64,000 nt of DNA, taken from an uncultured Candidatus Saccharibacteria bacterium. GTDB lineage: Bacteria; Patescibacteriota; Minisyncoccia; Minisyncoccales; JANBVM01. This document shows, piece after piece, positions 1-23,908 of this stretch. Within the stretch, counting starts at the first letter, position 1, and each line of letters opens with the position of its first letter. The stretch lies in contig CAYVDD010000001.1 of NCBI GenBank assembly GCA_964450805.1, positions 254,365-318,364 on the forward strand. Reading direction: 5' to 3'. Below the pieces are notes generated by a model, which was given only the letters and a program-made list of their open reading frames with translations, made no database searches and had not been told where the DNA came from. The translations under genes and the position numbers were made by a program.

Positions 1-961
1 AGAATCATCTCCAATGCCAATTTTAAAAGATATTGTTGTCTGGATGTCAGACAAGCCAATTATAAGGAGCCTGGCTCAATATTTCTTGGGATTAATGATG
101 GCAGCTCAAAGAACAATCTTTGGAAATACTGTTTATTTTATGGGCATGGTTTCAGCTTCTGGTTGGTGGTATTACTTTCCAGTTGTTTACTTCCTAAAGG
201 TTCCTTTAGGATTCCATATTTTAGCTTTAATTGCTCTTTTAATGAGTCTTTTAGCAATAAAAAGGCCTTTATGGGTAAGAACAACACAAAGGCTTAAAGA
301 ATGCATATTGAATAATTTCACTGCCTTTTCAATGATGATGTTTCTTTTGATTTACTGGACAGCTTCTATTTTAGGAAGCTTGAATATTGGAGTAAGGCAT
401 ATTCTTCCTGTTTTTCCTTTTACATATATTCTGGTGGGCTTAGCTTTAAAATATGGAATTGAAAAAATACAATCATTAAAACTTAAAAATGCAGTGAATT
501 GGCTTGTAATTTTTCTGTTGGGATCTTATATACTTTCTTCTTTAAACACTTATCCTTATTATCTGTCATATTTTAATGAAATAGCTGGGGGAACTGATAA
601 TGGATACAAATATGTGGTTGATTCAAACTATGACTGGGGACAGGATCTAAAAAGATTAAATCAGTATCTTGAAGAAAACAACATTAAAAGAATAAAGATT
701 GATTATTTTGGAGGATCAGACCTGAATTATTATCTTGGTGATAAATGGGAAAGGTTTAATGTTTTTTCTGGACCTCAACAAGGCTGGCTTGCTGTTTCAG
801 CAACCCTTCTTCAGGGAGGCAAAGGAAATCCAGTGCCTAATTTTACCCAGCCATCAGGTTATTACAAATGGCTTGATGACTACGAGCCAGTTGCAAGAGC
901 TGGAAAATCAATATTTATTTATTATATTTCCGGAGACTCATTTGTACTTAAAGGGCGCTAA
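1..961 (+). CDS. GT-C fold glycosyltransferase (PMT/ArnT-like), C-terminal part; the ORF is open to the window start, so it is partial
   Basis: The frame is open from position 2. The N-terminal part is multi-TM hydrophobic and the C-terminal part is a soluble domain. The composition resembles dolichyl-phosphate-mannose/4-amino-arabinose transferase family proteins. Confidence 0.45.
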   Translation, partial: ESSPMPILKDIVVWMSDKPIIRSLAQYFLGLMMAAQRTIFGNTVYFMGMVSASGWWYYFPVVYFLKVPLGFHILALIALLMSLLAIKRPLWVRTTQRLKECILNNFTAFSMMMFLLIYWTASILGSLNIGVRHILPVFPFTYILVGLALKYGIEKIQSLKLKNAVNWLVIFLLGSYILSSLNTYPYYLSYFNEIAGGTDNGYKYVVDSNYDWGQDLKRLNQYLEENNIKRIKIDYFGGSDLNYYLGDKWERFNVFSGPQQGWLAVSATLLQGGKGNPVPNFTQPSGYYKWLDDYEPVARAGKSIFIYYISGDSFVLKGR

Positions 962-1729
962 ATCGCCAAACCTAAGTTCAATATAATCAAGCCGATTTCT
1001 ATTTTCCAAAGGAACGTGTTCTTTTAAAATTGCCTCTAATTTTGTCAGCTGCCAATTAATATCTTTTTGAGGATTAAAATAGATTTCCCAAGCTTCGTCT
1101 GTTAAAATATTAATTCTTTCATTGGAAATTATTAAAGCTTTTTCAGCTTTAACATTTAATTCAGTTAAAACTGAAAAAATTTTTAAAATTTTTAAAACTA
1201 AATCCTTTTCCATTACTTGTTCTCCAGGTTTGAATTGCTTTTCATTGTTTAATTTCTCAATCTTTGGTAATTGAGATTCCTGCAGTAGAGGTTCAAAAAT
1301 CACTGCTTCTTGATCAATCAAAAAACAATTCTCATCATTATTGCAAAATACTGCCACTCCAAATCTTTCTATTACAATTACATTCAAGCTTTTAGGAAAA
1401 CTTTTGCTTATTTCTAAATCACTTATTTGAGGAAATGTATTTAAAGCTTGTTTCTTTATTTCAGTAATATTTGCTAAAAAAATGCTTTTTGTTGGAATAA
1501 ATAACACGCTTTTTTTAATTCTATTTTCAATTATTTCTAAAATACTTTGTTTTGAAATTTTTTCATTCCCTGAAATTATGATTTTTTCAATCTGAAAATA
1601 CTGAGAAAAAATTAAAGCATAAATAGCTAAAACAGAAAAAATAAAACCAAAAAAACCTGGCCAGAAATACTTTTTTTTGAAAAATGGTTTTTTTCTTTTA
1701 ATTCTGTGGGGTTTGCGGTATTTTCTCAT
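938..1729 (-). CDS. ftsQ: Cell division protein FtsQ/DivIB-like (N-terminal TM helix plus POTRA domain)
   Basis: Basic N-terminus, one TM helix, then a POTRA-like segment 'IEKIIISGNEKISKQSILE'. The size of 263 aa fits. Confidence 0.5.
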   Translation of the reverse strand: MRKYRKPHRIKRKKPFFKKKYFWPGFFGFIFSVLAIYALIFSQYFQIEKIIISGNEKISKQSILEIIENRIKKSVLFIPTKSIFLANITEIKKQALNTFPQISDLEISKSFPKSLNVIVIERFGVAVFCNNDENCFLIDQEAVIFEPLLQESQLPKIEKLNNEKQFKPGEQVMEKDLVLKILKIFSVLTELNVKAEKALIISNERINILTDEAWEIYFNPQKDINWQLTKLEAILKEHVPLENRNRLDYIELRFGDLAPFKYK

Positions 1730-2168
1730 ATTTTTTTAAAAAATTTATTAATTCATCTTCAGTTCTTGCAATGTAATCTAAAGAAACTTTTAACATTGGA
1801 TTTAATTTTGAACCAAGAAAAGCTGCCCGAATATCTGTATGTAAGCCCACTAATAATTTATTGTTTTTTTGTAAACGCTTTTGACAATACGCAACACCTA
1901 ATTCCATGCAAGCTCCTTCATCTGGCACCCTACCATCCAATATGACAAGAAAAATATCTGCTTCAAGTATTTTTTCTATATCAAGCTCAAACATTTTCTG
2001 CCTCTTTTCTTCCTTTTCCATTGATTTATAAGACTCTTTGTCGCTTTCTACTCCATCTCTTTGCGGAAGAAAAACATCATAACCAATTAATTCTAATTTT
2101 TCAGTTAAAGCTGAATTAAGCTCTTTTTCTGTTTTGTTAAACAATGGACCTGCAAAATATATCAACAT
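1698..2168 (-). CDS. Nucleoside 2-deoxyribosyltransferase family protein (PF05014-like)
   Basis: Motifs 'IYFAGPLF', 'DVFLPQRDG' and 'ADIFLVILDG...DEGACMELGVAY' match the NDT/DNPH1 Rossmannoid family. Confidence 0.7.
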   Translation of the reverse strand: MLIYFAGPLFNKTEKELNSALTEKLELIGYDVFLPQRDGVESDKESYKSMEKEEKRQKMFELDIEKILEADIFLVILDGRVPDEGACMELGVAYCQKRLQKNNKLLVGLHTDIRAAFLGSKLNPMLKVSLDYIARTEDELINFLKKYEKIPQTPQN

Positions 2169-2421
2169 AGTCTTATTCTATCAAAAAACCGCTTATAGAG
2201 CGATTTTGCATTTATTCATTTTTTGATCTTGTTGTTTTAACTATATTAAAACTAAAAAAATTTTTAGCATCACCACTAAGTAAGTTATTCTTTTGAGTCC
2301 TACAATTCTCCCCCTGTTGGACGCGTTCAGAACCATTGACTGGGTAGAAATAAAAGAAAATCTAATAAAATTAGATTTAGTAAAAATTTAAATAAAAAAA
2401 CCTCATTTCTTCGAACCTGTT

Positions 2422-3054
2422 TTAATCTAAAAATCTAAAAGTAGAAAGTATTTGGTTGAATATCTCTAAATCTTTATTGAATTGGCTCGTACTCCCTGAT
2501 ACACCATAAAGCCTGTAAAACTTATTTCCTTTAATAAATTCTATAGAGGCGGGTCCTCCCATCCAAACTTTCAAGTCTAAATTTCCTATTTTTCTTATTG
2601 TTACTTTATTTAGCCTTTCTTGTTTTAATCGCTCTGCAATATCTTCGTTCGAGGAATAATAACCTTGCTTAATCCAATCCTCGATTGATAAAGCGTTTCT
2701 AGAGTTTTCAAGAATAAGTATTTTAAAAGAACTTCCATTTTCTGTAAGAGGACCTCCACCAGCAACTATTACTTTTTCTTTAATATTTTCGATAAGAATA
2801 TTTTCCAAACAACCCTCAAATCCACATTCCAACCTATATTCTTCTTTTAAAAACCAATCCGAAGGATACTTTATTTCGTATTTAACCCTCTCGTTTCTAT
2901 AAGTTTTCCAATCAGCTGTTCCGTCTTTTATTTTTTCTAAAACATCCTGTATCTCTGGATATTGCCAAATAAATCCTCCAACTAAAACACTTAAAGCTAA
3001 AATAATTCCTATTGCTAATAGAGTAGATATTCCTTTATTAATAAAGTTTTTCAT
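2422..3054 (-). CDS. Hypothetical membrane-anchored or secreted protein
   Basis: N-terminal signal-anchor helix and no recognisable catalytic motif. Confidence 0.35.
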   Translation of the reverse strand: MKNFINKGISTLLAIGIILALSVLVGGFIWQYPEIQDVLEKIKDGTADWKTYRNERVKYEIKYPSDWFLKEEYRLECGFEGCLENILIENIKEKVIVAGGGPLTENGSSFKILILENSRNALSIEDWIKQGYYSSNEDIAERLKQERLNKVTIRKIGNLDLKVWMGGPASIEFIKGNKFYRLYGVSGSTSQFNKDLEIFNQILSTFRFLD

Positions 3055-3315
3055 ATATTTTATTCTATCAAAAAATACCCATTAAATCACCTCTTAAAAT
3101 TTACCATTTTATCTATTTGTTTGGCAAATTCTTCGATACTTCAAAGAATAAATTGTCAAAAAGAATTCGTGTAATGGCACGAGAGTGAAAAAATAATGTA
3201 CCGAGAAAATATTTATAAAATTTTAAAAAAACGTTTTTCTTACTATAATATTCAAGCCAGCTAAACCTAAAACTGGGAATTTTCATATTAAATTTCTTTA
3301 AAAAATTCCTCGTTA

Positions 3316-3870
3316 TTAGTAAAGAACAGTATGAAAACCAAGCTTCTTTGCCGCTTTTACATTGTCGTAATTATCATCAATAAAAAGACATTTATTAGAA
3401 TTGGTGTTGATTTCTTTAAGCATATATATAAATATCCTAGAGTCCGGTTTTGAAAATCCAATCTCAGCTGAATTAAATACACGATCAAAATCATTATAAA
3501 TTTTAAATCGCTCTTTAAGAAGGATATCTAAGATAGCAGTGCTATTTGACAAAGCATAGATTTTATAATCTTTTCTTTTTTCTCTAATCCAATCTATTAA
3601 AGGTTGGTTTAATTTTTCAGTTCGAAAAAAAGTATTGGTAGCTTCTTTGTACTGATTAAAGCTTAAAATATGAGAAAAATTCTCTAAAAAATATTTTTTA
3701 AGATCAAGATTTTTATGCACGCTCATTTTATCAAAACAATCTCGTAATACCTTCGCAGTAGTTCCTTTTTTTAAAGACCACTTTTTATCAAATTCTGCAT
3801 AATTAACCTTTTCACTTGTTATAACTACACCCCCTATGTCAAATATTAAATTTTTAATTTCTGGATTCAT
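3316..3870 (-). CDS. HAD-superfamily hydrolase-like protein
   Basis: Motif I-like 'LIFDIGGVV', an 'ALSNS' motif II, a conserved Lys and 'FIDDNYDNV' (motif IV, DD). Confidence 0.55.
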   Translation of the reverse strand: MNPEIKNLIFDIGGVVITSEKVNYAEFDKKWSLKKGTTAKVLRDCFDKMSVHKNLDLKKYFLENFSHILSFNQYKEATNTFFRTEKLNQPLIDWIREKRKDYKIYALSNSTAILDILLKERFKIYNDFDRVFNSAEIGFSKPDSRIFIYMLKEINTNSNKCLFIDDNYDNVKAAKKLGFHTVLY

Positions 3871-3887
3871 ATAATGAATAATTATTA

Positions 3888-3918
3888 TTTAAAAAAAATA
3901 AGTAGGCTAAAGCCTACA
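3888..3918 (-). terminator. Rho-independent terminator downstream of the PD-(D/E)XK nuclease gene
   Basis: Hairpin gtaggc-taaa-gcctac, followed on the minus strand by a U-run (A9 on the plus strand at 3891-3899). Confidence 0.5.
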
Positions 3919-4026
3919 TTTAGGTTGGCTTAAGCTCATTGGAGCAAAAGCACTAGCTGGACCAAATTTTTTATCAGGACATCCTTCCCATCGCTCATAG
4001 AGCGATTTTTAAATTTTAATGTTTTT

Positions 4027-4812
4027 TTACAAACCAAAAGTTTTTTGCCAATGATTATTGCCTTCTTGTTTAACTAATCTCTCGCGCTTACAATGTTCAC
4101 ATTCCTCACCAGCATTAGGAACTACATCAGAATCAAGGCATTTTTTAATATCTAAAATAGCAGAATCAATCCATGAATCGTTTCCATTATAAGGTAAGAT
4201 TGAAGCTTTAAACTCTAATTTTCCATCAAATTTAGGATTATTTTTACTGGCATTAACAAATAAGAAATATCCTGTGTTTAAAACATTAAAACCCATTTGC
4301 CTGAATATCCATTGATAAACCTCCATCTGCTTCTTATAACCCTGCTTATACTCATCATCTAAAGAAATCTCTCTGCTCGTGCTTGTTGCCTTATAATCAA
4401 CAATATATAACTCTTTGGTTTTTTGATTAATCCAGACATCATCAACAATACCGCAAATCTCTAACTTGCTTTTTTCATGAAGCACACAAGCTCCAACATA
4501 CTTATAATAATCATCTCTCCAGATTGGTAAATCTTTATGTTTAAAGGGTACAGCATCTATACCATACTCTGTCATTAATACATGAGATTCTCCATTTTTT
4601 CTTAACAAATCAAATTCTTTTTTAAGCAAATGATCAACAGCACTATTTAATGCCCAGCCAGGCATACTTGGTCTTCCCAACCCCATTCTTCTGTCTAAAT
4701 AAAAACAGCGAGGACATTCTAAAAAAAGATCTATCTTTGAACGACTTATTCTGAAAGGCTCTTTTAAATCGGGACTATATATATTTTTTTGTCTTTTTTT
4801 ATATTTATTCAT
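4027..4812 (-). CDS. PD-(D/E)XK nuclease, Cas4/RecB(AddB)-nuclease-domain-like, with a 4-Cys cluster signature
   Basis: Motif II 'GIVDDVW', motif III 'IVDYKAT', Q-motif 'QMEVYQW', an N-terminal 'CPRC' and a C-terminal 'CEHC'. Confidence 0.6.
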   Translation of the reverse strand: MNKYKKRQKNIYSPDLKEPFRISRSKIDLFLECPRCFYLDRRMGLGRPSMPGWALNSAVDHLLKKEFDLLRKNGESHVLMTEYGIDAVPFKHKDLPIWRDDYYKYVGACVLHEKSKLEICGIVDDVWINQKTKELYIVDYKATSTSREISLDDEYKQGYKKQMEVYQWIFRQMGFNVLNTGYFLFVNASKNNPKFDGKLEFKASILPYNGNDSWIDSAILDIKKCLDSDVVPNAGEECEHCKRERLVKQEGNNHWQKTFGL

Positions 4813-4944
4813 TTTTTTTGATTTTTAAATTATTCTAGCCACATTAACATTAAAAAACAAATCTTGGTATCGCTACCAAATAAAAAATTAATTTACTTTA
4901 AATCATTTGATAGAAAAATTAGGTTTTTTAAAAAGAGATTTTTT

Positions 4945-5559
4945 CTATAAAAACGGAAGAAATTTTTGCTTTGTTAAATTTTTTAACTTCATACCAACAG
5001 AAGACGTTGTTAATTTAGATATTCTATTTAAAGACTTACCCAATTCATCTATAGGTAGTTTAGGATTAAATAAATGTGTGTCTGATCCAAATCTTTTAAG
5101 AAAAGATTCTTTTTTATTTTTATAATTGTCATCTGTTTCCGCTTCCTCTGCTATTTTTCCAAGAATATCTTGAATGCAATTCCCTTTATGTAATATTTGA
5201 TTATATACATTTTTTCTAAGCTCTTCTAACGCCTTTTCGGCTAACTTAGATTTAGAAAAAAAGTTATTTATTAAATCCCATTCATCTGGATCAAAATCAT
5301 GTATAAAAAGATGTCCGTACTTTTCCCAATTATTCGTAGGAAGGATCGATGTATTTTTTATCTCACTTTTACTAATCGGAGACGACATTAAGTAGTCAAC
5401 TACCTTTTCGACATTTCTAATCTCATTAAGAACGATGCTCGCTATTTCTCTCTTATCATCACTTCTTCTTTTAAAATAAATCAAAAAAGTTAATCCACCA
5501 ACGATAATGGCAGTTAATCCTATAAACAAATTTGAGTTTAAAAAAGTTAATATGTTCAT
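4945..5559 (-). CDS. Hypothetical protein with an N-terminal TM helix
   Basis: Hydrophobic segment 'LFIGLTAIIVGGLTFLIYF'. The 4-nt gap to the upstream Ntn-hydrolase gene suggests an operon. Confidence 0.4.
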   Translation of the reverse strand: MNILTFLNSNLFIGLTAIIVGGLTFLIYFKRRSDDKREIASIVLNEIRNVEKVVDYLMSSPISKSEIKNTSILPTNNWEKYGHLFIHDFDPDEWDLINNFFSKSKLAEKALEELRKNVYNQILHKGNCIQDILGKIAEEAETDDNYKNKKESFLKRFGSDTHLFNPKLPIDELGKSLNRISKLTTSSVGMKLKNLTKQKFLPFL

Positions 5560-5562
5560 AAT

Positions 5563-6552
5563 CTATAAATTTGGTTCTTTATCTAAATCTAGTTCTATAT
5601 CTCCAATCCTCAGCCTTTTTTTACTAACCCAAACAAAACCCTTCTCTGGACTTATAACAGCGACATCAACAGGTCCACCTACTCCGGGTATATCTCCTGG
5701 GCTAGCTTTAATACCGTCTGAAAATCGTTGAATCGCTGAGGTAGTTTGAATCATCAACACACAAAAATCAATTGCATCTTGAAGAGTCATTGTTCCCCAT
5801 TGAATATGATATTCTAAATTTCTAAGTTGCCTGTTTATTTCTTCCTTGTTGTTATTCTGAATTGCATCTTGAACAAATTTAATATTACTAATCCTGCCAT
5901 CCCAACCTAACACAATCCTTGAAACAACATCTATTTGCCCCGTCCAAGAAGCTCCATATTCTTTGCCTTTTTCTCGACTATCTCTCAGTTTTTGAATCTC
6001 ACCAGGAACACGACAGCTGTAAACTTCATGTGAACTATCTTTATTATAACCAGCCACCAGAAAACTAATTGGATCAACTTTAGCTGCACCATTTTTTATA
6101 TTACCTTGAGGGTCTTTAAAGCGAAATTTTAGGAGATATTGTTCTTTTTTAACCTCTATAACTTCACAGCCCTGTCTTTGAAGATCATTTTTGATTTTAT
6201 TTGGTAATTTTTCCAATTGCTCTTCCCACTTATATTTTTTATTAAACAAATAATGTATTTTTTCAGCAACATCTCTTACATTTAATTCTTCTATTCTTTC
6301 ACTCTGCTCAAGTTTGAACTGATCAATAAATTTACTAATACTTTTCATTATTCCATCTTCTGGTAAAAATGCTAAACCAGTCACTGCTACACCAACTCTT
6401 TTATTTAATTGAAAAAGCTTAGAAGCATTATCACTTCCAATGCGCGCCATTCCTTTTTTATTACGATAACTTTGCCTACTATCAGCTGCCAGAACCAAAC
6501 CAGCTGGTGTTGTAGAATTTATGACTAATGACATAATAGTTATTCTTATCAC
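5563..6552 (-). CDS. Ntn-hydrolase of proteasome beta-subunit/HslV type with a large internal insertion
   Basis: N-terminal 'STTPAGLVLAADSRQS...KLFQL...GVAVTGLA' resembles the proteasome beta Thr1 region 'TT(I/V)xG..D.VvlAaD.R.t'. C-terminal 'PGVGGPVDVAVISPEKG' resembles the last proteasome strands. The ~130 aa between them has no match. Confidence 0.4.
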   Translation of the reverse strand: MIRITIMSLVINSTTPAGLVLAADSRQSYRNKKGMARIGSDNASKLFQLNKRVGVAVTGLAFLPEDGIMKSISKFIDQFKLEQSERIEELNVRDVAEKIHYLFNKKYKWEEQLEKLPNKIKNDLQRQGCEVIEVKKEQYLLKFRFKDPQGNIKNGAAKVDPISFLVAGYNKDSSHEVYSCRVPGEIQKLRDSREKGKEYGASWTGQIDVVSRIVLGWDGRISNIKFVQDAIQNNNKEEINRQLRNLEYHIQWGTMTLQDAIDFCVLMIQTTSAIQRFSDGIKASPGDIPGVGGPVDVAVISPEKGFVWVSKKRLRIGDIELDLDKEPNL

Positions 6553-6583
6553 ACTCCAGAAACCCTATCAAGTTTATTACTAA

Positions 6584-6787
6584 TTATAATATTGTCATTT
6601 TTGGATCACGAGAGTCAATTTCATCAACTTTTTTCGACATTTCCTCAACTCCCTTATAACAATTTTCGAAAAGCTTGACCCATGAGTTCATTGATAATCC
6701 TTCTGGTTTAATTTGTCGTGAGGAATATCCAGAAATCCAAGCCTCTACCAATCTGAGGGCCTGTTTTGTTTTCTCTTCTTTTTCCAT
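6584..6787 (-). CDS. Small hypothetical protein (67 aa), first gene of the minus-strand operon
   Basis: This ORF sits just upstream of, and on the same strand as, the Ntn hydrolase. It is divergent from the LexA-MTase gene. Confidence 0.3.
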   Translation of the reverse strand: MEKEEKTKQALRLVEAWISGYSSRQIKPEGLSMNSWVKLFENCYKGVEEMSKKVDEIDSRDPKMTIL

Positions 6788-6843
6788 GTTGCTATATTTT
6801 TAATTTTTAATATTAATGCCGACCTTTTAAAAGTTTTCCACAG

Positions 6844-6881
6844 TTGACACTGTTTTATGTTCGGTAAATGTTCGGTATAAT
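6844..6881 (+). promoter_or_regulatory. Divergent promoter/operator region: tandem direct repeat ATGTTCGGTAA/ATGTTCGGTAT overlapping a TATAAT -10 element
   Basis: TTGACA at 6844-6849. Repeats at 6857-6866 and 6868-6877. TATAAT at 6876-6881, about 35 nt upstream of the LexA-MTase ATG. Confidence 0.35.
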
Positions 6882-6916
6882 ACATTAATAATATCAACCA
6901 TAAAAAATCACGTCAA

Positions 6917-8392
6917 ATGTTAACAAAAAGACAAAAACAAATTCTTGATTACATTCAAAAATTTATAGAAAAAAAGGGCTATTCCCCATCTTTTGAAAAA
7001 GTGGCGAAGCACTTTAAATTAGTCAAATCTACTATTCATCAACATATTGAAACTTTAAAAAGTAAGGGGTACTTAAAAAATCAACCAAGAATTATAGAGA
7101 TATCTAAAAATAAAAAATTTCAAGAATTGGTACAGATTCCAATATTAGGAACTATCGCTGCTGGACAACCAATAGAAATAATAAGAGACAAAGAATTTAT
7201 TAAAGTGGCTAAATCTAGACTATCTTCGTCTGGTGAACATTATGCTCTTAAAGTTCAAGGAGATAGCATGATAGATGAAGGAATTCACGATTCTGATGTT
7301 GTAATAATTAAAAAACAATCTTATGCAGAAGATGGAGAAACAATAGTTGCTTTGACTAACTATGACGAAGTTACTTTAAAAAAAATCTATAAAGAAAAAG
7401 ATGGATTTCGTTTACAACCAGCTAACCCAAAGCTAAAACCAATTTTTGTAAAAGAATTAATTATTCAAGGCAAAGTTATTAGCGTAATTAAAAATTACAA
7501 AGAACTAAAAGAAAAAATAAAGGCTAAATTAAAAGTTAAAATTAGAACAAGCAAAACGCCAAAAAAAAATATAAAAAAACATCTAAATAAAGTATTTCTT
7601 GGAGATATTATGAATCTTCTAAAAGAGCTACCCAATGAAAGTGTAGATATGGTTTTTGGAGATCCTGATTATAATGTTGGTATAAAATACAGAGATAAAA
7701 GTTATACAAGAAACTTCAACGAATATATTGAATGGTATATTGATTTAATAAAAGAATCTATGAGAGTTTTAAGAAAAGATGGAAATTTATTCACAATGAA
7801 TTATCCCAAACAAAATGCACATTTAAGAGTGAAATATTTAGACAACACATATCCTTTAATTCATGAATATGTATGGACTTACAATACAAATGTAGGTCAT
7901 TCTTCAAAACGTTTCACTACTGGACATAGAAACATCTTACATGTCAGAAAAAGTAAAAATAATAAATTTTACAAAAATAATGTAGCATTACCTTATAAGA
8001 ATCCGACGGATAGAAGAATTTTAAAAAATTTAAGAAATGGATCAAAGGGTAGAATGCCTTATTCTTGGTTCTATTTCAATCTTGTTAAAAATGTTAGTAA
8101 AGAAAAAACTTGTCATGCTTGTCAAATACCTCAAAAACTTACGGAAATGTTAATAAAATCTTGCACAATGCCAAACGACATGGTTTTAATTCTTTTTGGT
8201 GGAAGTGGAGCTGAATTAGAAGTATGCAAGAGAACAAAAAGACAATATATTTCTGCTGAAATAGATGAAAAATATTACGAAATGATTAAAGATAGATTAA
8301 AAAATGGTTGTATTAAAAAAGAATACAAGCTAAAACTTAGAAATCCTATAAAACCTAAGGAAAGCTTGTCGCTTTTTAGTAAAGAGGTATAA
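6917..8392 (+). CDS. Fusion protein: full-length LexA repressor (wHTH plus S24 autopeptidase) fused to a beta-class N6-adenine/N4-cytosine DNA methyltransferase (PF01555-like)
   Basis: LexA part: N-terminal HTH, cleavage-site-like 'IAAGQP', catalytic 'QGDSM' and 'TLKKI' (Ser/Lys dyad). A Lys-rich linker follows. MTase part: 'VDMVFGDPDYN' (motif IV, DPPY-type) precedes 'HACQIPQKL...LILFGGSGA' (motif I FxGxG), which is the beta-class order. Confidence 0.75.
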   Translation: MLTKRQKQILDYIQKFIEKKGYSPSFEKVAKHFKLVKSTIHQHIETLKSKGYLKNQPRIIEISKNKKFQELVQIPILGTIAAGQPIEIIRDKEFIKVAKSRLSSSGEHYALKVQGDSMIDEGIHDSDVVIIKKQSYAEDGETIVALTNYDEVTLKKIYKEKDGFRLQPANPKLKPIFVKELIIQGKVISVIKNYKELKEKIKAKLKVKIRTSKTPKKNIKKHLNKVFLGDIMNLLKELPNESVDMVFGDPDYNVGIKYRDKSYTRNFNEYIEWYIDLIKESMRVLRKDGNLFTMNYPKQNAHLRVKYLDNTYPLIHEYVWTYNTNVGHSSKRFTTGHRNILHVRKSKNNKFYKNNVALPYKNPTDRRILKNLRNGSKGRMPYSWFYFNLVKNVSKEKTCHACQIPQKLTEMLIKSCTMPNDMVLILFGGSGAELEVCKRTKRQYISAEIDEKYYEMIKDRLKNGCIKKEYKLKLRNPIKPKESLSLFSKEV

Positions 8393-9008
8393 TTTTTTTA
8401 ACTTCCTTATAATTAAAATCTTCTCTTTCTAGTAAAACAAGAGCCGCAAAAAATTTAGCTCTTCCAGCTCCACCACTAGTTGGTTTGTCATTTTTGTTTC
8501 TTAAAACATATCTAACTGGAGAATTAACATCTTTCCAACTAAACTTATAATTAAAATCTTCTTGTATCCATATCCATTTTAACATCAACAAGTAAAGCTT
8601 AGAATCAATTCCAGGCAATCTTGGTAAGTTCTTTGGTGTGGTATTATTTTTATAAACTTTCTCTATCGCTTTCCAAAACTTTTTACTCTTTTTTTTATTT
8701 TCTTGAAAATCGTTCATCATTTCTGCAAAAGTGAATTTACTTGTATTAAGCTCTTTGCCTTTTTTATATGGTACAACTTCAAAATCGTACAGGTTGGTCC
8801 ATAAAGCAGAATTGCTTCTAACTATCTTTAAATTTCTCTTTTTAATTTTTTTACCTGGATAACGAAGCCCAACTATAGGGTTCTTTTTTGTTCCTTCCAC
8901 AATAAATAGGATTGAGCCTGCAGCTTTTTCTCGATAAGGAGCTAATGCTTGGGCTACTTCTTGATAAATTCTTTTTGGATTTTTAATTTTTAATTCTATA
9001 ATTTTCAT
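8376..9008 (-). CDS. Hypothetical protein (210 aa), translationally coupled to the femAB-like gene
   Basis: ATGA start/stop overlap with the upstream femAB-like gene. It is convergent with the MTase, overlapping it by 17 nt. No firm motif; a D/E-x-K-like segment 'YDFEVVPYKK' is present. Confidence 0.35.
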   Translation of the reverse strand: MKIIELKIKNPKRIYQEVAQALAPYREKAAGSILFIVEGTKKNPIVGLRYPGKKIKKRNLKIVRSNSALWTNLYDFEVVPYKKGKELNTSKFTFAEMMNDFQENKKKSKKFWKAIEKVYKNNTTPKNLPRLPGIDSKLYLLMLKWIWIQEDFNYKFSWKDVNSPVRYVLRNKNDKPTSGGAGRAKFFAALVLLEREDFNYKEVKKIIPLY

Positions 9009-10000
9009 AATCCTTTTTTTATTTTCCTAATAGCTTCCACCATAAAAGAGAACCAATACTTTAAATTTATAATACAATCCTGAGTTCTAACATATTCTTT
9101 ACTTTTACCCCCAAATCCCTTTTTAAACAAGCTTAATCCATACCAAGGATGACTCTTTTTTTCATCAGGAACCACTCCCCAAAAATTAAATTTTTTACAT
9201 CCTTTTTCCTTAGCTTTTTTAATAGCTTCCCAAAGTAATAAATAAGAAACGGGAATTTTAGGGTATTTTAAAGAAGAGGCTCCATGATGATAAAATCCAA
9301 CATCTCCCCAAAAAACAAAAATGCCAGAAGCAACCACTTCCCCATTATATTTTCCCAACAAAACCAAAATCTGACCATCTTTAGAAAAAGCTTTAAATTC
9401 ATTTTTCAAATAATTCAAAGAAAAAGGAACAAAGTGCTGACGCACTTTAGTCTGTTGATATAATTTATCAAATTCTTCAACACCATCAGCTTCAATAATC
9501 TCAACATTCTTTTTAATAGCTTTTTTAATCAAATAACGGGTGGTTTTACGCATACCCATCAATAATTCATCTTCAGTCAAATCAATATCCAACTCCCAAG
9601 TCAACTCAGGATGAACGAAAGTAGGAGCATTACGAAAACCAAGTTTTTTAAAGACAACTAAACCAGATTCAGTAACAGGAGAAATACGAATATGACTTAC
9701 CTTTTCAACAACAGCCAAAGCTTTTAACTTATAATTCATCAAACTTTTTAAAACCAAAGCTTTAGACCTAGAAACAACAGGACCATGAGGAACAAACAAA
9801 AAACTACCTCTTTTAGCCTCAACCTTAATAACCAGAGCAGCACCAATTAATTCAGAATCATAAACACCAAACCTCCATATCTTATCCCCCATCAAAGAAT
9901 TAAACTCCCCCCAATTCCAAGAATGAAGAAATGTTTTTTCTTCACATTTTTCCAAAAAATTCTCCCAAACATTTTTTTCAAAAATTTCTTTAACTTCCAT
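9005..10000 (-). CDS. FemAB-family peptidoglycan interpeptide bridge aminoacyltransferase (FemX-like)
   Basis: Size and composition match the FemAB family. It lies in an operon with the Mur ligase. Confidence 0.65.
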   Translation of the reverse strand: MEVKEIFEKNVWENFLEKCEEKTFLHSWNWGEFNSLMGDKIWRFGVYDSELIGAALVIKVEAKRGSFLFVPHGPVVSRSKALVLKSLMNYKLKALAVVEKVSHIRISPVTESGLVVFKKLGFRNAPTFVHPELTWELDIDLTEDELLMGMRKTTRYLIKKAIKKNVEIIEADGVEEFDKLYQQTKVRQHFVPFSLNYLKNEFKAFSKDGQILVLLGKYNGEVVASGIFVFWGDVGFYHHGASSLKYPKIPVSYLLLWEAIKKAKEKGCKKFNFWGVVPDEKKSHPWYGLSLFKKGFGGKSKEYVRTQDCIINLKYWFSFMVEAIRKIKKGL

Positions 10001-11537
10001 AAATTAAATCCTTAATTTTTTTAGAAATTCTTCCTTCTAAAAGAATAACGTTTTCAGAATTTAAAAATGGTTTAATTTTTTCAAAAATTAAGTCAGGTTT
10101 TTCTGAAAATATGACCTTATTACCTGCCCTTTTTTTTATATCTTCAAACTTATCTCTTGTAACAATAATCCCTAAATCACAAATTTCATTAATCTTCTCC
10201 CCTATTTTTTTATGAATCTCATCAGAAGCGCTACCCAATTCAATCAAACAAGGCATAATAATTATTTTTTTACCAGAAAAAAGCTTTAAATGATTTAAAT
10301 GAGAAAATACACCATTAGGATTAGCTGAATAAGTAGAATCAATAATATTTATTCCATTAAAGCCTTTAGAAAAGCTTGGATCAACAGCCTTAATATTTTC
10401 ACAAGCTCTGGCAACCTCTTCCAAGCTCATTCCAAAATCTTTTGCAACAGCGCTTACCAGTAAAATGTTTTCTATACTTTCAACTCCTAAAAGATCTACT
10501 CTAAAATGAGCTGAATCTCCGTCTCTAGAAAACACTCTAAAATGAACAGATTCTTTTTCTACAACTATATTCTTAGCCCAAACACCTAATTCTTCTTTAG
10601 TTGAACAAAACACAAGATTATCTGTTTCTGGCTCTAAATTCCTGACAATATCATTATTACCATTTAAAACTGCTAAACCATTTTTTGGCAAACTTTGAAT
10701 TAATTCAAACTTAGTTTTAGTAATATTGTCCTGGCTTCCAAACAAAGCCATATGCTGTTCATTAATACCAGTTAACACTCCTATTTTAGGTTTAACAATA
10801 TCACAAAGCAATTTTATCCCCCCTCTGCCGTATGCTCCCATTTCAACAATAAAAACCTCATGTTCAGAATTCAAATCATTTAAAATACACTGACTTATTC
10901 CAACTTCAGAGTTTTGATTTTTTTTAGTTTTTAAAACTTTGTATTTATTTTTTAAAACTTCATATAAAAATTCTTTGGTTGAAGTTTTCCCATAAGAACC
11001 AGTAATTCCAATAACAATCAAATTTTTAAAGCTTTTTCTTTTTTCTTTTGCTTTTTTAATAATCCTGTTTCTTAACGATACTGTAATTGGCTGAAACAAC
11101 AAAACAATACCAGAAGCAATTAAAGGAGTTAAAATATCAAAAATCAATAATTTTAAAATCAAATCTTTTCTGTAAAAGAAAATAACAACAAAAGAAATTA
11201 AAAAAACAAAACTAATAATAAATAAAAAAACAGTTTTTAAAGTAAAAACAGGTTTTTTAATTTTTTTCAAAGCAAAATTATAAAAAAACTTAGCTGATTC
11301 TAAAATATATATTATTAACAAAGCAATCTCACCAATAAAAAAAGAAATGAAAGGAATTAAAAATAATTTAAAAATCAAAAGATTATTTAAAAAAAGCTTT
11401 TTCCCCTTATAAGTTCGGAAATGGTCAATAAACCTTCCAACATGATATTCTTTAAGCTGCCAAAGATAAAGCCAAAACAAAAAAGCTTTAGTTTCACGTA
11501 TTAACCAGAGAAAACTAAGAATTAAAACAAGAACCAT
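9990..11537 (-). CDS. Mur ligase family protein (MurF/MurE-like) with an N-terminal ~170-aa polytopic membrane extension
   Basis: 'IVIGITGSYGKTSTKEFL' (Mur ligase P-loop) and a central/C-terminal Mur ligase domain. Residues 1-170 form several TM helices. Confidence 0.7.
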   Translation of the reverse strand: MVLVLILSFLWLIRETKAFLFWLYLWQLKEYHVGRFIDHFRTYKGKKLFLNNLLIFKLFLIPFISFFIGEIALLIIYILESAKFFYNFALKKIKKPVFTLKTVFLFIISFVFLISFVVIFFYRKDLILKLLIFDILTPLIASGIVLLFQPITVSLRNRIIKKAKEKRKSFKNLIVIGITGSYGKTSTKEFLYEVLKNKYKVLKTKKNQNSEVGISQCILNDLNSEHEVFIVEMGAYGRGGIKLLCDIVKPKIGVLTGINEQHMALFGSQDNITKTKFELIQSLPKNGLAVLNGNNDIVRNLEPETDNLVFCSTKEELGVWAKNIVVEKESVHFRVFSRDGDSAHFRVDLLGVESIENILLVSAVAKDFGMSLEEVARACENIKAVDPSFSKGFNGINIIDSTYSANPNGVFSHLNHLKLFSGKKIIIMPCLIELGSASDEIHKKIGEKINEICDLGIIVTRDKFEDIKKRAGNKVIFSEKPDLIFEKIKPFLNSENVILLEGRISKKIKDLIYGS

Positions 11538-11539
11538 AA

Positions 11540-12310
11540 TTAGCTGGTTAAAAAACTAACAATTATATCTGACAGCTTATCCGGAGCTTCAACATGAGGA
11601 CTATGACCTACATCTTCTAAAAATTCTAAAACAGAATCTTTAATCTGTTCTTTAAAAATGTATGAGTATTTTACAGGAACCAGTTTATCTTCCTTACCCC
11701 AGACGACTAAAGTTTTTGTCTGAATTTCAGATAAACGAGGAAGCAAATCCTCATCAATAATTTTTTTAATGATTTCTTTCATCACACCATCTGCTTTTAC
11801 ATAATCTTTATGGCGTAAAAAAGAATAAAATATATTCCTGGCACCATCTTTAAATCTTTCCAGAATATGAGGAGAAAAAATAACATTGCCAATATGAGCA
11901 GCATAAGCAATCATTGTATCCTTAAATCCTAATTTAGGTTTTATTCCGGCTGAATCACAAAGAATCAGATTCTTAACCATATCAGGATAATTGATACTGA
12001 ACTTAATTGCAATCCTTCCGCCAAAAGAATGGCCTAAAAGATAAAAATTCTTTAAATTTTGTGAGTGAACAAATCCATTAAACCAGTTCATATAATCATC
12101 AACAGACCAGACACTATCTGGAGTTCTGCTTTTTCCAAAACCAGGAAAATCAGGACAAATCACTTTGTATCCTTTGCCAGACAATATTTCCATAACATCA
12201 ACCCAGGAATCAGATGAACTTCCCCAGCCATGTAAAACCAAAATCACAGGACCTGATCCTGCAATTCTGTAATTGACTTTCAGATTGTTAATTAAAATGC
12301 TTTTTTCCAT
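11540..12310 (-). CDS. Alpha/beta-fold hydrolase
   Basis: Nucleophile elbow 'GHSFGG', plus an Asp and a His in the C-terminal part. Confidence 0.65.
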   Translation of the reverse strand: MEKSILINNLKVNYRIAGSGPVILVLHGWGSSSDSWVDVMEILSGKGYKVICPDFPGFGKSRTPDSVWSVDDYMNWFNGFVHSQNLKNFYLLGHSFGGRIAIKFSINYPDMVKNLILCDSAGIKPKLGFKDTMIAYAAHIGNVIFSPHILERFKDGARNIFYSFLRHKDYVKADGVMKEIIKKIIDEDLLPRLSEIQTKTLVVWGKEDKLVPVKYSYIFKEQIKDSVLEFLEDVGHSPHVEAPDKLSDIIVSFLTS

Positions 12311-23158: not shown

Positions 23159-23287
23159 AGATAAGAAGTTTTTATTAATTAGACTACCGACCTTTTAAAA
23201 AGATATTGGTATATTATAGCATTATGTCAAAAAAGCTCCTGTGGAAAACTTTTTAGCTGATTTTTCATAAAAAAATATCAATTTTTA

Positions 23288-23335: not shown

Positions 23336-23908
23336 ATGAAAAACATTGAGATAGAAATACAAGTTAATGTTGAAAACAGCAAACCACTCTTGGATTTTCT
23401 AAAAAATAATGCTCAATTTAAATCAGAAAAACAACAAACTGATGAATATTTTTCTCCAATTCATCGCAGTTTTGTTAAGGTCAGACCTGTGAAAGAATGG
23501 TTAAGATTAAGGAATTCAAAAGGTAGTTATTCAATAAACTACAAAAATTGGCACTATGATGAAAATAAAAAAAGCACTTATTGTGATGAATATGAAACTA
23601 AAATAGAAAACCTGGATAAGATTAAAAAAATCCTCAATATTCTTAATTTTAAACCACTTATTACAGTTAATAAGTTAAGAAAAACCTGGGTTTATAATAA
23701 CTATGAAATTAATATAGATTCAGTTAAAGATCTTGGTGATTTTGTAGAGATTGAATATATTGGAAAAGAACAAGTTGAACCAGTTAAAATTACAGAACAA
23801 ATGATAAATTTTCTGAAAAATATAGGCTGTGGAAAAATAAAAAGGAATTACCTGGGATATCCTTTCCAGCTTTTATTCCCAGATGAAATAAAATACGAAG
23901 AATTATAA
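23336..23908 (+). CDS. CYTH-domain protein (triphosphate tunnel metalloenzyme: CyaB / ThTPase / PPPase family)
   Basis: N-terminal 'IEIEIQV' (ExExK-like), 'LRLR' (RxR) and C-terminal 'LGDFVEIEYIG' acidic strand motif. Confidence 0.65.
   Translation: MKNIEIEIQVNVENSKPLLDFLKNNAQFKSEKQQTDEYFSPIHRSFVKVRPVKEWLRLRNSKGSYSINYKNWHYDENKKSTYCDEYETKIENLDKIKKILNILNFKPLITVNKLRKTWVYNNYEINIDSVKDLGDFVEIEYIGKEQVEPVKITEQMINFLKNIGCGKIKRNYLGYPFQLLFPDEIKYEEL

Follow-up and report, generated by a model that had tools for sequence, protein, structure and literature searches.

A LexA-methyltransferase fusion and its convergent partner gene form the conserved unit of a variable island in a CPR-type genome

What holds together the run of non-housekeeping genes that lies between ftsQ and the femAB/Mur-ligase operon in a 64-kb stretch of DNA from an uncultured Candidatus Saccharibacteria bacterium (64,000 nt of contig CAYVDD010000001.1, hereafter the window)? 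A previous sequence-only reading had singled out a minus-strand operon coding for a 67-amino-acid (aa) protein, a proteasome-like N-terminal nucleophile (Ntn) hydrolase, a transmembrane (TM) protein and a Cas4/RecB-like nuclease. It had proposed that this operon, together with the divergent gene for a LexA repressor fused to a DNA methyltransferase (MTase), forms a damage- or phage-inducible defence or repair module, or else a prophage remnant. The open reading frames (ORFs) on which it relied are all present, their family assignments hold, and the two divergent units do share one intergenic region, of 129 bp (6788-6916) instead of the 130 bp given. Comparison with other genomes leads to a different unit. 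The conserved pair is the LexA-MTase gene and the convergent gene of a 210-aa protein (p210) at its 3' end, not the minus-strand operon.

The LexA-MTase fusion (491 aa; 6917-8392, plus strand) joins a complete LexA, with winged helix, Ala-Gly cleavage site and Ser/Lys autoprotease, to a beta-class N6A/N4C DNA methyltransferase. The LexA winged helix-turn-helix domain occupies aa 2-57 (6920-7087; PF01726 at 8e-14) and is followed by the S24 peptidase domain at aa 75-188 (7139-7480; PF00717 at 2e-27), which carries the cleavage site Ala82-Gly83 (7160-7165) and the catalytic residues Ser117 (7265-7267) and Lys155 (7379-7381). The LexA part reaches 169 bits against the TIGR00498 lexA equivalog, whose cut-off is 111, and its top match among PDB sequences is the Thermotoga LexA (3e-35). 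The MTase domain spans aa 221-474 (7577-8338) and contains the motifs DPDY (aa 249-252, 7661-7672) and FGGSG (8195-8209). It matches the N6_N4_Mtase family PF01555 at 6e-33 and the PADLOC model MTase_II PDLC03337 at 8.6e-129, and M.MboIIA is its best match among the solved MTase structures (1.6e-21). In an alignment of 23 sequences, A82-G83, S117, K155 and the FGGSG motif are all invariant.

The same architecture is found in more than 120 clusters at 90% identity, which share 60-85% identity. Named records belong to Nealsonbacteria, Paceibacterota and other metagenome-assembled genomes (MAGs) of the Candidate Phyla Radiation (CPR), and the full fusion occurs in species-representative MAGs labelled Nealson-, Wolfe-, Magasanik-, Kerfeld-, Giovannoni-, Harrison-, Woese- and Staskawiczbacteria. 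A few fused loci are labelled Elusimicrobia, Planctomycetales, Woesearchaeota, Pacearchaeota or Omnitrophica, several of them on short contigs, and we take these non-CPR labels to be binning errors. Public records name the protein simply 'LexA'. We found no description of LexA-MTase fusions in the searchable literature; earlier work on the Patescibacteria SOS network may mention them. With well over a hundred sequence clusters, they make up a large unrecognised family.

A second, independent fusion was observed in the locus L009 (1293-2840, minus strand; the same in L010). This protein of 515 aa consists of LexA-S24 and a D12 (Dam-type) MTase. An HTH_3 (C-protein-like) gene and a 179-aa gene (526-1291, plus strand) converge on it, and the divergent genes (2932-5389, plus strand) code for Vsr, a 337-aa protein containing only the LexA DNA-binding domain, and an Ntn hydrolase. 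Its operator, TTTCGG-N5-TTTCGG, is of the type described below for the window fusion and is accompanied by a DnaA box.

The partner gene of the window fusion, p210 (8376-9008, minus strand), is convergent with it and overlaps its 3' end by 17 bp. The linkage was counted in the 28 distinct, full-length fused loci whose downstream sequence reaches 600 bp or more. Each of the 28 has a convergent partner, which is p210 in 19 loci and, in the other nine, a protein of a second family (family A, 274-314 aa) unrelated to p210. In the p210 loci, the 3' ends of the MTase and p210 genes overlap by 4-41 bp in 18 of these 19 loci. Each of the five long contigs examined has a Pfam-less gene of about 210 aa that converges on the MTase gene and overlaps or abuts its 3' end, while the divergent genes and the flanks all differ. 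The closest relative, L091 (85% identity), has the same pair near femAB, which lies downstream of it, with two extra genes after p210, and a divergent gene that differs from that of the window and codes for an LTD-domain protein. The sequence-only reading had recognised the LexA-MTase correctly and overlooked its conserved pairing with the downstream 210-aa gene.

The window p210 has no significant match in Pfam, PADLOC, NCBIfam or PDB sequences, and none of its 405 homologues carries a Pfam domain. The family is small, since a profile search of 1.84 billion representatives gave 47 matches, all of about 200 aa or fragments and none of them a fusion. The AlphaFold2 model of p210 has a pLDDT of 90. 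It finds no Foldseek match in the PDB, and its sole match in BFVD is a borderline one to an uncharacterised phage protein. The extended family keeps invariant or nearly invariant YP, DF, W...ED..Y and GR motifs. The always-linked p210 is a compact candidate endonuclease with a confidently predicted structure and no known fold match, and we consider that it is most likely the cognate restriction endonuclease (REase).

Two further observations concern p210 and its neighbourhood. Kinship of p210 with family A was tried and rejected, hhalign giving a probability of 0.9%. The two families share the order of three motifs, (Y/K)PGK(K/E), (N)D(F/M) and W-x-ED-x-(N/K)-Y, which is suggestive only and may mean a common catalytic arrangement. 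In addition, the start of p210 overlaps the stop codon of femAB, and its upstream sequence yielded no promoter-like site, so that p210 may be co-transcribed with the femAB/Mur-ligase operon.

The surroundings of the pair were compared by synteny with two complete Nealsonbacteria genomes, L175 (CP179889.1) and L174 (CP179890.1), which were reached through the 90% cluster of the window nuclease, since this cluster includes their proteins. The comparison confirms that a strain-variable accessory island lies between ftsQ and femAB/Mur ligase, as had been suggested. Three genes are core genes in this Nealsonbacteria-type CPR genome. FtsQ (938..1729, minus strand) is 80% identical to the FtsQ of L175 and sits at the equivalent relative position; FemAB (9005..10000, minus strand; PF02388) is 75.5% identical to that of L175; and the PD-(D/E)XK (Cas4-like) nuclease (4027-4812, minus strand) is 88% and 86% identical in the two Nealsonbacteria genomes. 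The variable island proper is located between femAB and the nuclease, at about 4900-9005, and contains the TM, Ntn and 67-aa proteins, the LexA-MTase and p210. On the femAB side, the stop codon of femAB marks its exact edge and overlaps the start codon of p210 (ATGA, 9005-9008). At the other border, DNA homology to L175 restarts about 68 nt upstream of the nuclease ATG (window ~4880).

In the two relatives, the same position is filled with other genes. The order in L175 is Mur ligase, FemAB, a 105-aa gene, an S24 repressor (216 aa), an N6_N4 MTase (398 aa), a HinfI-family REase, DUF2130, four small genes, an OLD-family ATPase-nuclease, the PD-(D/E)XK nuclease, Ham1, NUDIX and FtsQ. L174 has an MTase divergent from a 73-aa gene, then a stand-alone LexA (203 aa), two unknown genes, a Tsp45I-family REase, SbcD, SbcC, the PD-(D/E)XK nuclease, Ham1, NUDIX and FtsQ. 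An S24/LexA-type repressor together with a restriction-modification (R-M) system is therefore present in the island of all three genomes, in unrelated versions: the repressors of L175 and L174 are merely 27-31% identical to the window LexA domain. Such close genomes differ at one locus in both repressor and R-M system, and the repressor therefore behaves as cargo and not as a core gene.

The island of L174 also contains a duplicate, 40 codons long, of the nuclease gene's 5' end (MNKYKKRQSNIYNPDLKEPFRISRSKIDLFLQCPRYFYFH*; 466-590, plus strand), located just upstream of the stand-alone lexA and 7.4 kb from the intact gene. This copy resembles a scar of the insertion or recombination that swapped the island content.

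The MTase domain also has relatives outside the fusion. Stand-alone versions with 60-76% identity occur in Planctomycetota, Bacteroidota, Spirochaetia, Chloroflexota, Gammaproteobacteria and others, and such a cross-phylum spread is typical of a mobile R-M methylase. A partner gene of one of three families (A, B and C) is immediately adjacent to these stand-alone genes, usually upstream and co-directional. Family B is composed of DUF6996 and DUF6997 and matches the PADLOC model REase_II at 1e-10 to 1e-18. Family A adjoins both stand-alone and some fused MTases, and family C (181-217 aa) is linked to p210 by hhalign (probability 84%, E 7e-6, 131 columns). Moreover, the MTase/partner pair is patchily distributed, with partners that change among phyla and a module that differs between genomes whose flanking genes are 75-88% identical. 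Taken together, we judge it probable that the LexA-MTase and p210 form a type II R-M-like module in which LexA serves as a built-in, damage-cleavable controller.

The promoter of the fusion gene contains a candidate operator for its LexA part. The sequence TGTTCGG-TAAA-TGTTCGG, a GTTC-N7-GTTC direct repeat, is located at 6858..6875 (plus strand) and abuts the plus-strand -10 box TATAAT (6876-6881), which was read from the sequence and the alignment. It occurs once in the window, where 0.02 matches are expected by chance, and each of the fused genes has the same arrangement 40-70 bp upstream. Its half-sites lie 11 bp apart, vary jointly among lineages (GTTCGG, CTTCGG, TTTCGG, TTTCTA, TTTCGA, CTACGG, TGTCGG and GCTCGG) and track the recognition helix predicted for the LexA part: ST(I/V)H(Q/E)H accompanies ..TCGG, STAH(F/Y)(H/Y) with TTTCTA, and GTVQEH with CTACGG. 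This covariation is confounded by relatedness, though several types concur. GTTC-N7-GTTC is a published LexA direct-repeat motif of Alphaproteobacteria (PMC8565304).

On the opposite strand, a consensus scan gives a promoter-like sequence with TTGACG at 6916-6911 and TG-n-TATTAT at 6893-6888 (10/12 with TG). With these elements, the operator would occupy approximately -30..-13 of the plus-strand promoter and +6..+23 of the minus-strand transcript. The divergent transcript is thus predicted to begin beside the operator, and LexA binding could affect both directions.

A DnaA-box-like element, GTTTTCCACA, is located beside the operator at 6833..6842 (plus strand). Of 38 fused loci (the L001-L045 set), 31 have the 9-mer TT[AT]TCCACA, in either orientation, between -200 and +60 relative to the start, and 34 of the 52 matches in 486 kb fall inside those upstream windows of about 260 bp. 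The 10-mer GTTWTCCACA has only two matches in the 64-kb window. The conserved position of this element suggests that the promoter integrates damage signals with the state of replication.

Other matches to the 9-mer within the window lie only at 23240-23248 and 23828-23836 (TGTGGAAAA); an ORF at 23336-23908 (plus strand) has one of them upstream and one inside its 3' end. Such a 9-mer also precedes the stand-alone lexA of L174, whose candidate operator is the palindrome CCCGAC-N6-GTCGGG and not a direct repeat. In L034, L037 and L005, two inverted operator/DnaA-box pairs flank the -10 box.

Based on these elements, a regulatory loop can be proposed. By likeness to MTases bearing an N-terminal helix-turn-helix (HTH), the LexA part would bind GTTC-N7-GTTC at its own -10 box and cause autorepression of the MTase. 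Upon damage, RecA bound to single-stranded DNA would trigger self-cleavage, freeing the DNA-binding domain from the S24-MTase part, and the promoter would be derepressed. MTase synthesis would then rise, and the convergent, overlapping transcription would oppose the partner gene. Together these steps would amount to an internal safety or restriction-alleviation loop against self-restriction. Since the operator falls within the ~25 nt at the 5' end of the divergent transcript, as predicted, the genes of the divergent slot may be co-regulated and co-induced. The opposite polarity may also apply, with relief of promoter competition activating the divergent unit while LexA is bound.

More broadly, and tentatively, the LexA-MTase fusions, built on two unrelated MTase families, may represent an undescribed class of R-M control. 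The methylase itself would be damage sensor and repressor, self-inflicted or phage-induced DNA damage would cleave the repressor and so reset the balance of modification and restriction, p210 would be an REase of a fold absent from the PDB, and the LexA-gated divergent promoter would be a slot for captured cargo (GmrSD, OLD/Gabija-like, HEPN/AbiV, DndB-like, Schlafen and further defence genes in other CPR genomes, the Ntn set here). To our knowledge, the regulation of type II R-M systems proceeds through C proteins, HTH-bearing MTases and promoter methylation, none of which senses DNA damage. If the proposal is true, a cleavable LexA on the MTase would give an R-M system a direct read-out of chromosome breakage, and it would offer a testable answer to how the tiny, repair-poor CPR cells tolerate restriction enzymes.

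Several points weigh against the R-M interpretation. Family and fold searches reveal no recognisable nuclease signature in p210. Motif IV of the MTase reads DPDY, where DPPY is canonical, without variation among the fused proteins; the stand-alone MTase relatives that have REase partners have DPDY too. The 64-kb window contains no second operator, and no recA or repair gene carrying one. The promoters and terminators are consensus matches only, and promoter-like sites are not enriched in the region. In addition, the high identity across CPR lineages (60-85%) is also compatible with a strongly constrained housekeeping role.

The best of the alternatives takes the fusion to be a general SOS repressor carrying an orphan regulatory (epigenetic or cell-cycle) MTase, and p210 to be a non-nuclease accessory that might, for instance, bind DNA or act in the damage response. 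In its favour, the LexA domain scores above the lexA equivalog cut-off, the fusion occurs very widely in CPR and with high conservation, the DnaA-box-like element beside the operator suggests coupling to replication, and p210 lacks a nuclease signature. We nevertheless regard it as unlikely. A general SOS repressor is hard to reconcile with the replacement of the repressor, along with its R-M system, between close genomes, and with a single operator in 64 kb; an orphan MTase is at odds with a mobile R-M family whose members have recognised REase partners elsewhere. Moreover, p210 is frameshifted in two genomes in which the LexA-MTase is intact (L005/L017, 11469-12099, minus strand; L012, 3723-4300, minus strand), and frameshifting is a common fate of restriction genes. 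The frameshifts themselves could be genuine decay, phase variation or assembly errors at a homopolymer.

Returning to the minus-strand operon, its first gene is the 67-aa ORF (6584-6787), followed by the genes of the Ntn-hydrolase-like protein (ORF 5563-6552), the TM protein (204 aa, 4945-5559) and the nuclease. That these four genes constitute one LexA-controlled, damage- or phage-inducible defence or repair system has some features in its favour: they lie on the same strand with short gaps, and the operator is inside the shared 129-bp region. In L009, L121 and probably L114 (a short contig), an Ntn gene forms a unit with a protein carrying the LexA DNA-binding domain, and in L009 this unit is divergent from the LexA-D12 MTase fusion. 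Many defence-type genes also occupy the divergent slots at other fused loci. Yet none of the four genes recurs beside any of about 38 other LexA-MTase loci. Of 84 Ntn loci, only L101 has a member of the window nuclease family next to the Ntn gene, and only L158 has a relative of the TM protein there, a weak one. The nuclease belongs to the core genes; about 68 nt of its upstream sequence are conserved with L175, and its upstream neighbours in the relatives are different ones. PADLOC detects no system in the operon, with no match for the 67-aa and TM proteins, which are both singletons, only a partial LmuA match at 1e-3 for the Ntn protein, and only weak Cas4 similarity for the nuclease. Absent linkage thus largely refutes a single system, which we consider very improbable.

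Parts of the earlier proposal survive in another form. Local damage-responsive control stays plausible because a LexA-type operator is located in the shared intergenic region, but the operon genes to which it was attributed are not linked to LexA elsewhere. Likewise, the defence flavour of the region stands while the operon itself yields no recognised defence system. The case carries a caution for annotation: co-directional genes beside a regulator need not form a system, and here they comprise one core gene and three unlinked cargo genes.

The divergent slot is instead a defence-flavoured cargo position and not a fixed system, because its contents differ among the fused loci. These include GmrSD-like genes, OLD with PD-(D/E)XK and PIF1, HEPN/AbiV with UvrD, DndB-like genes (twice), Schlafen/AlbA_2, DUF4209, DUF3644, DUF6119, nucleotidyltransferase, HEPN and D12 MTase genes, and sometimes housekeeping genes.

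The Ntn gene almost certainly starts at ATG 6534, judging from the alignment, because 24 of 24 aligned homologues begin with M-S/T-L; the protein would then have 323 aa. Its Pfam Proteasome match (PF00227, 4.4e-5) covers only the N-terminal 45 residues and barely exceeds the cut-off (23.7 against 22.4 bits). The predicted nucleophile is Ser2, replaced by Thr in one homologue, after a conserved Met, and D24 and K45 are invariant. D24 lies 16 residues past the nucleophile, as expected, and K45 lies 37 past it, not 32. The protein has no match among PDB sequences, and its AlphaFold2 model is poor (pLDDT 49.6), the alignment being too uniform. The family has 1162 homologues, the top ones 72-78% identical. 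In the loci L094-L173, members remain about 75% identical even across MAGs labelled as different CPR classes and archaea.

The neighbours of the 84 Ntn loci vary. A 392-aa TPR protein is directly upstream in 26 loci of one subclade, and other neighbours include a BsaWI-type R-M system, RloB, OGG, NrdR-NrdD, ABC transporters and a stand-alone MTase from the same family as that of the window. The protein with a LexA DNA-binding domain that adjoins the Ntn gene in L009/L010, L121 and probably L114 lacks S24.

The TM protein is a single-pass protein with one N-terminal hydrophobic helix, as read from the sequence. It has no family match in four libraries, and its 90% cluster is a singleton; the sole relative seen is weak (7e-8) and stands beside the Ntn gene of L158. 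The 67-aa ORF likewise has no family match, forms a singleton cluster and is absent from all other loci examined. Both proteins are orphan cargo.

The nuclease matches PF12705 at 1.5e-11 and fails the cas4 equivalog TIGR00372 (21.3 bits, cut-off 65); its PADLOC Cas4 matches are weak. No cas genes are near it, the neighbours in relatives being SbcCD or an OLD-family gene and Ham1/NUDIX. A relative with 53% identity is encoded at 4980-5732 of an IMG/VR contig predicted to be viral (L093, UViG_3300042876_001093), between ORFs of 895 and 535 aa.

Between the TM and nuclease genes, weak AT-rich hairpins are present on the minus strand (4850..4952), with a near-palindrome at 4906-4952, close to the island boundary at ~4880-4900. 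One hairpin, UUGGUA/UACCAA followed by a U tract, has -5.9 kcal/mol and a z-score of 0, i.e. the stability of shuffled sequence, and was rejected as a terminator between the two genes, being weak in that role. The division into two transcription units at this point is based on the upstream conservation and not on hairpin energetics.

That the island is the remnant of a prophage or integrative element, its CI/LexA-like repressor and methylase left over, is the least probable explanation and can be set aside, since the PHROG matches to phage repressors and MTases and the nuclease relative on the IMG/VR contig are outweighed by an IMG/VR search returning no fusion, no Ntn homologue and only four stand-alone MTase relatives, by a region without integrase, structural genes or flanking att-like repeats (AT-rich chance matches only), and by the core nature of the nuclease.

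The GC content of the island is indistinguishable from that of the flanks, so that the compositional comparison proposed earlier gave no signal, and no Rfam match to a structured RNA occurs within 1-12000.

A second, small variable slot is located between the nuclease and ftsQ (1698..3870). In the window, it contains NDT (1698-2168; PF05014 at 9e-18), a TM-anchored hypothetical protein of 210 aa (2422-3054) and a HAD phosphatase (3316-3870; Pfam/NCBIfam match), all on the minus strand, whereas Ham1 (ITPase) and NUDIX occupy it in L174 (8865-9805) and L175 (10795-11744). The enzymes differ between the window and its relatives, yet both sets plausibly act on nucleotide pools. No LexA-MTase locus examined contains homologues of NDT, the hypothetical protein or HAD.

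Among known systems, the closest in organization are the R-M systems of the SsoII, Ecl18kI, EcoRII and MspI type, in which an MTase with an N-terminal HTH represses its own promoter. The window module resembles them in several respects. A DNA-binding domain is placed at the MTase N-terminus, the operator lies in the MTase promoter and adjoins a divergent one, a small partner gene is tightly linked to the MTase, and the mobile MTase family swaps partners. It differs in that the fusion contains a whole LexA with an intact S24 autoprotease, so that the repressor is predicted to be destroyed by DNA damage. In addition, the operator is a direct repeat, and the partner is convergent, overlapping and of unassigned fold.

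Compared with canonical LexA proteins that recognise direct-repeat boxes (PMC8565304), the first 195 residues of the fusion have the same architecture and catalytic residues, and the autoregulatory operator would be the same GTTC-N7-GTTC. Unlike those proteins, the window LexA is covalently fused to an MTase, is island cargo that travels with an R-M partner, and has no wider regulon visible in the window.

The Ntn protein, for its part, shares with HslV, Anbu and BPH the N-terminal Ser/Thr after Met, the conserved Asp and Lys, and the N-terminal Pfam Proteasome match. It is distinguished from them by its length of 323 aa, a long helical insertion, a distinct C-terminal half and the lack of an HslU-type partner, and its proteasome-type fold is putative.

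Finally, CapH/CapP and the WYL-type BrxR/CapW are regulators of defence systems, and CapH/CapP and WYL factors respond to DNA damage signals. BrxR is a WYL-type regulator of a defence module (PMC9122589). As in C-protein R-M systems and in those governed by CapH/CapP or BrxR/CapW, a dedicated transcription factor would set the expression of a defence module in the window. In contrast to the C-protein, CapH and BrxR regulators, the one found here is fused to the protective enzyme itself and belongs to the LexA/S24 family.

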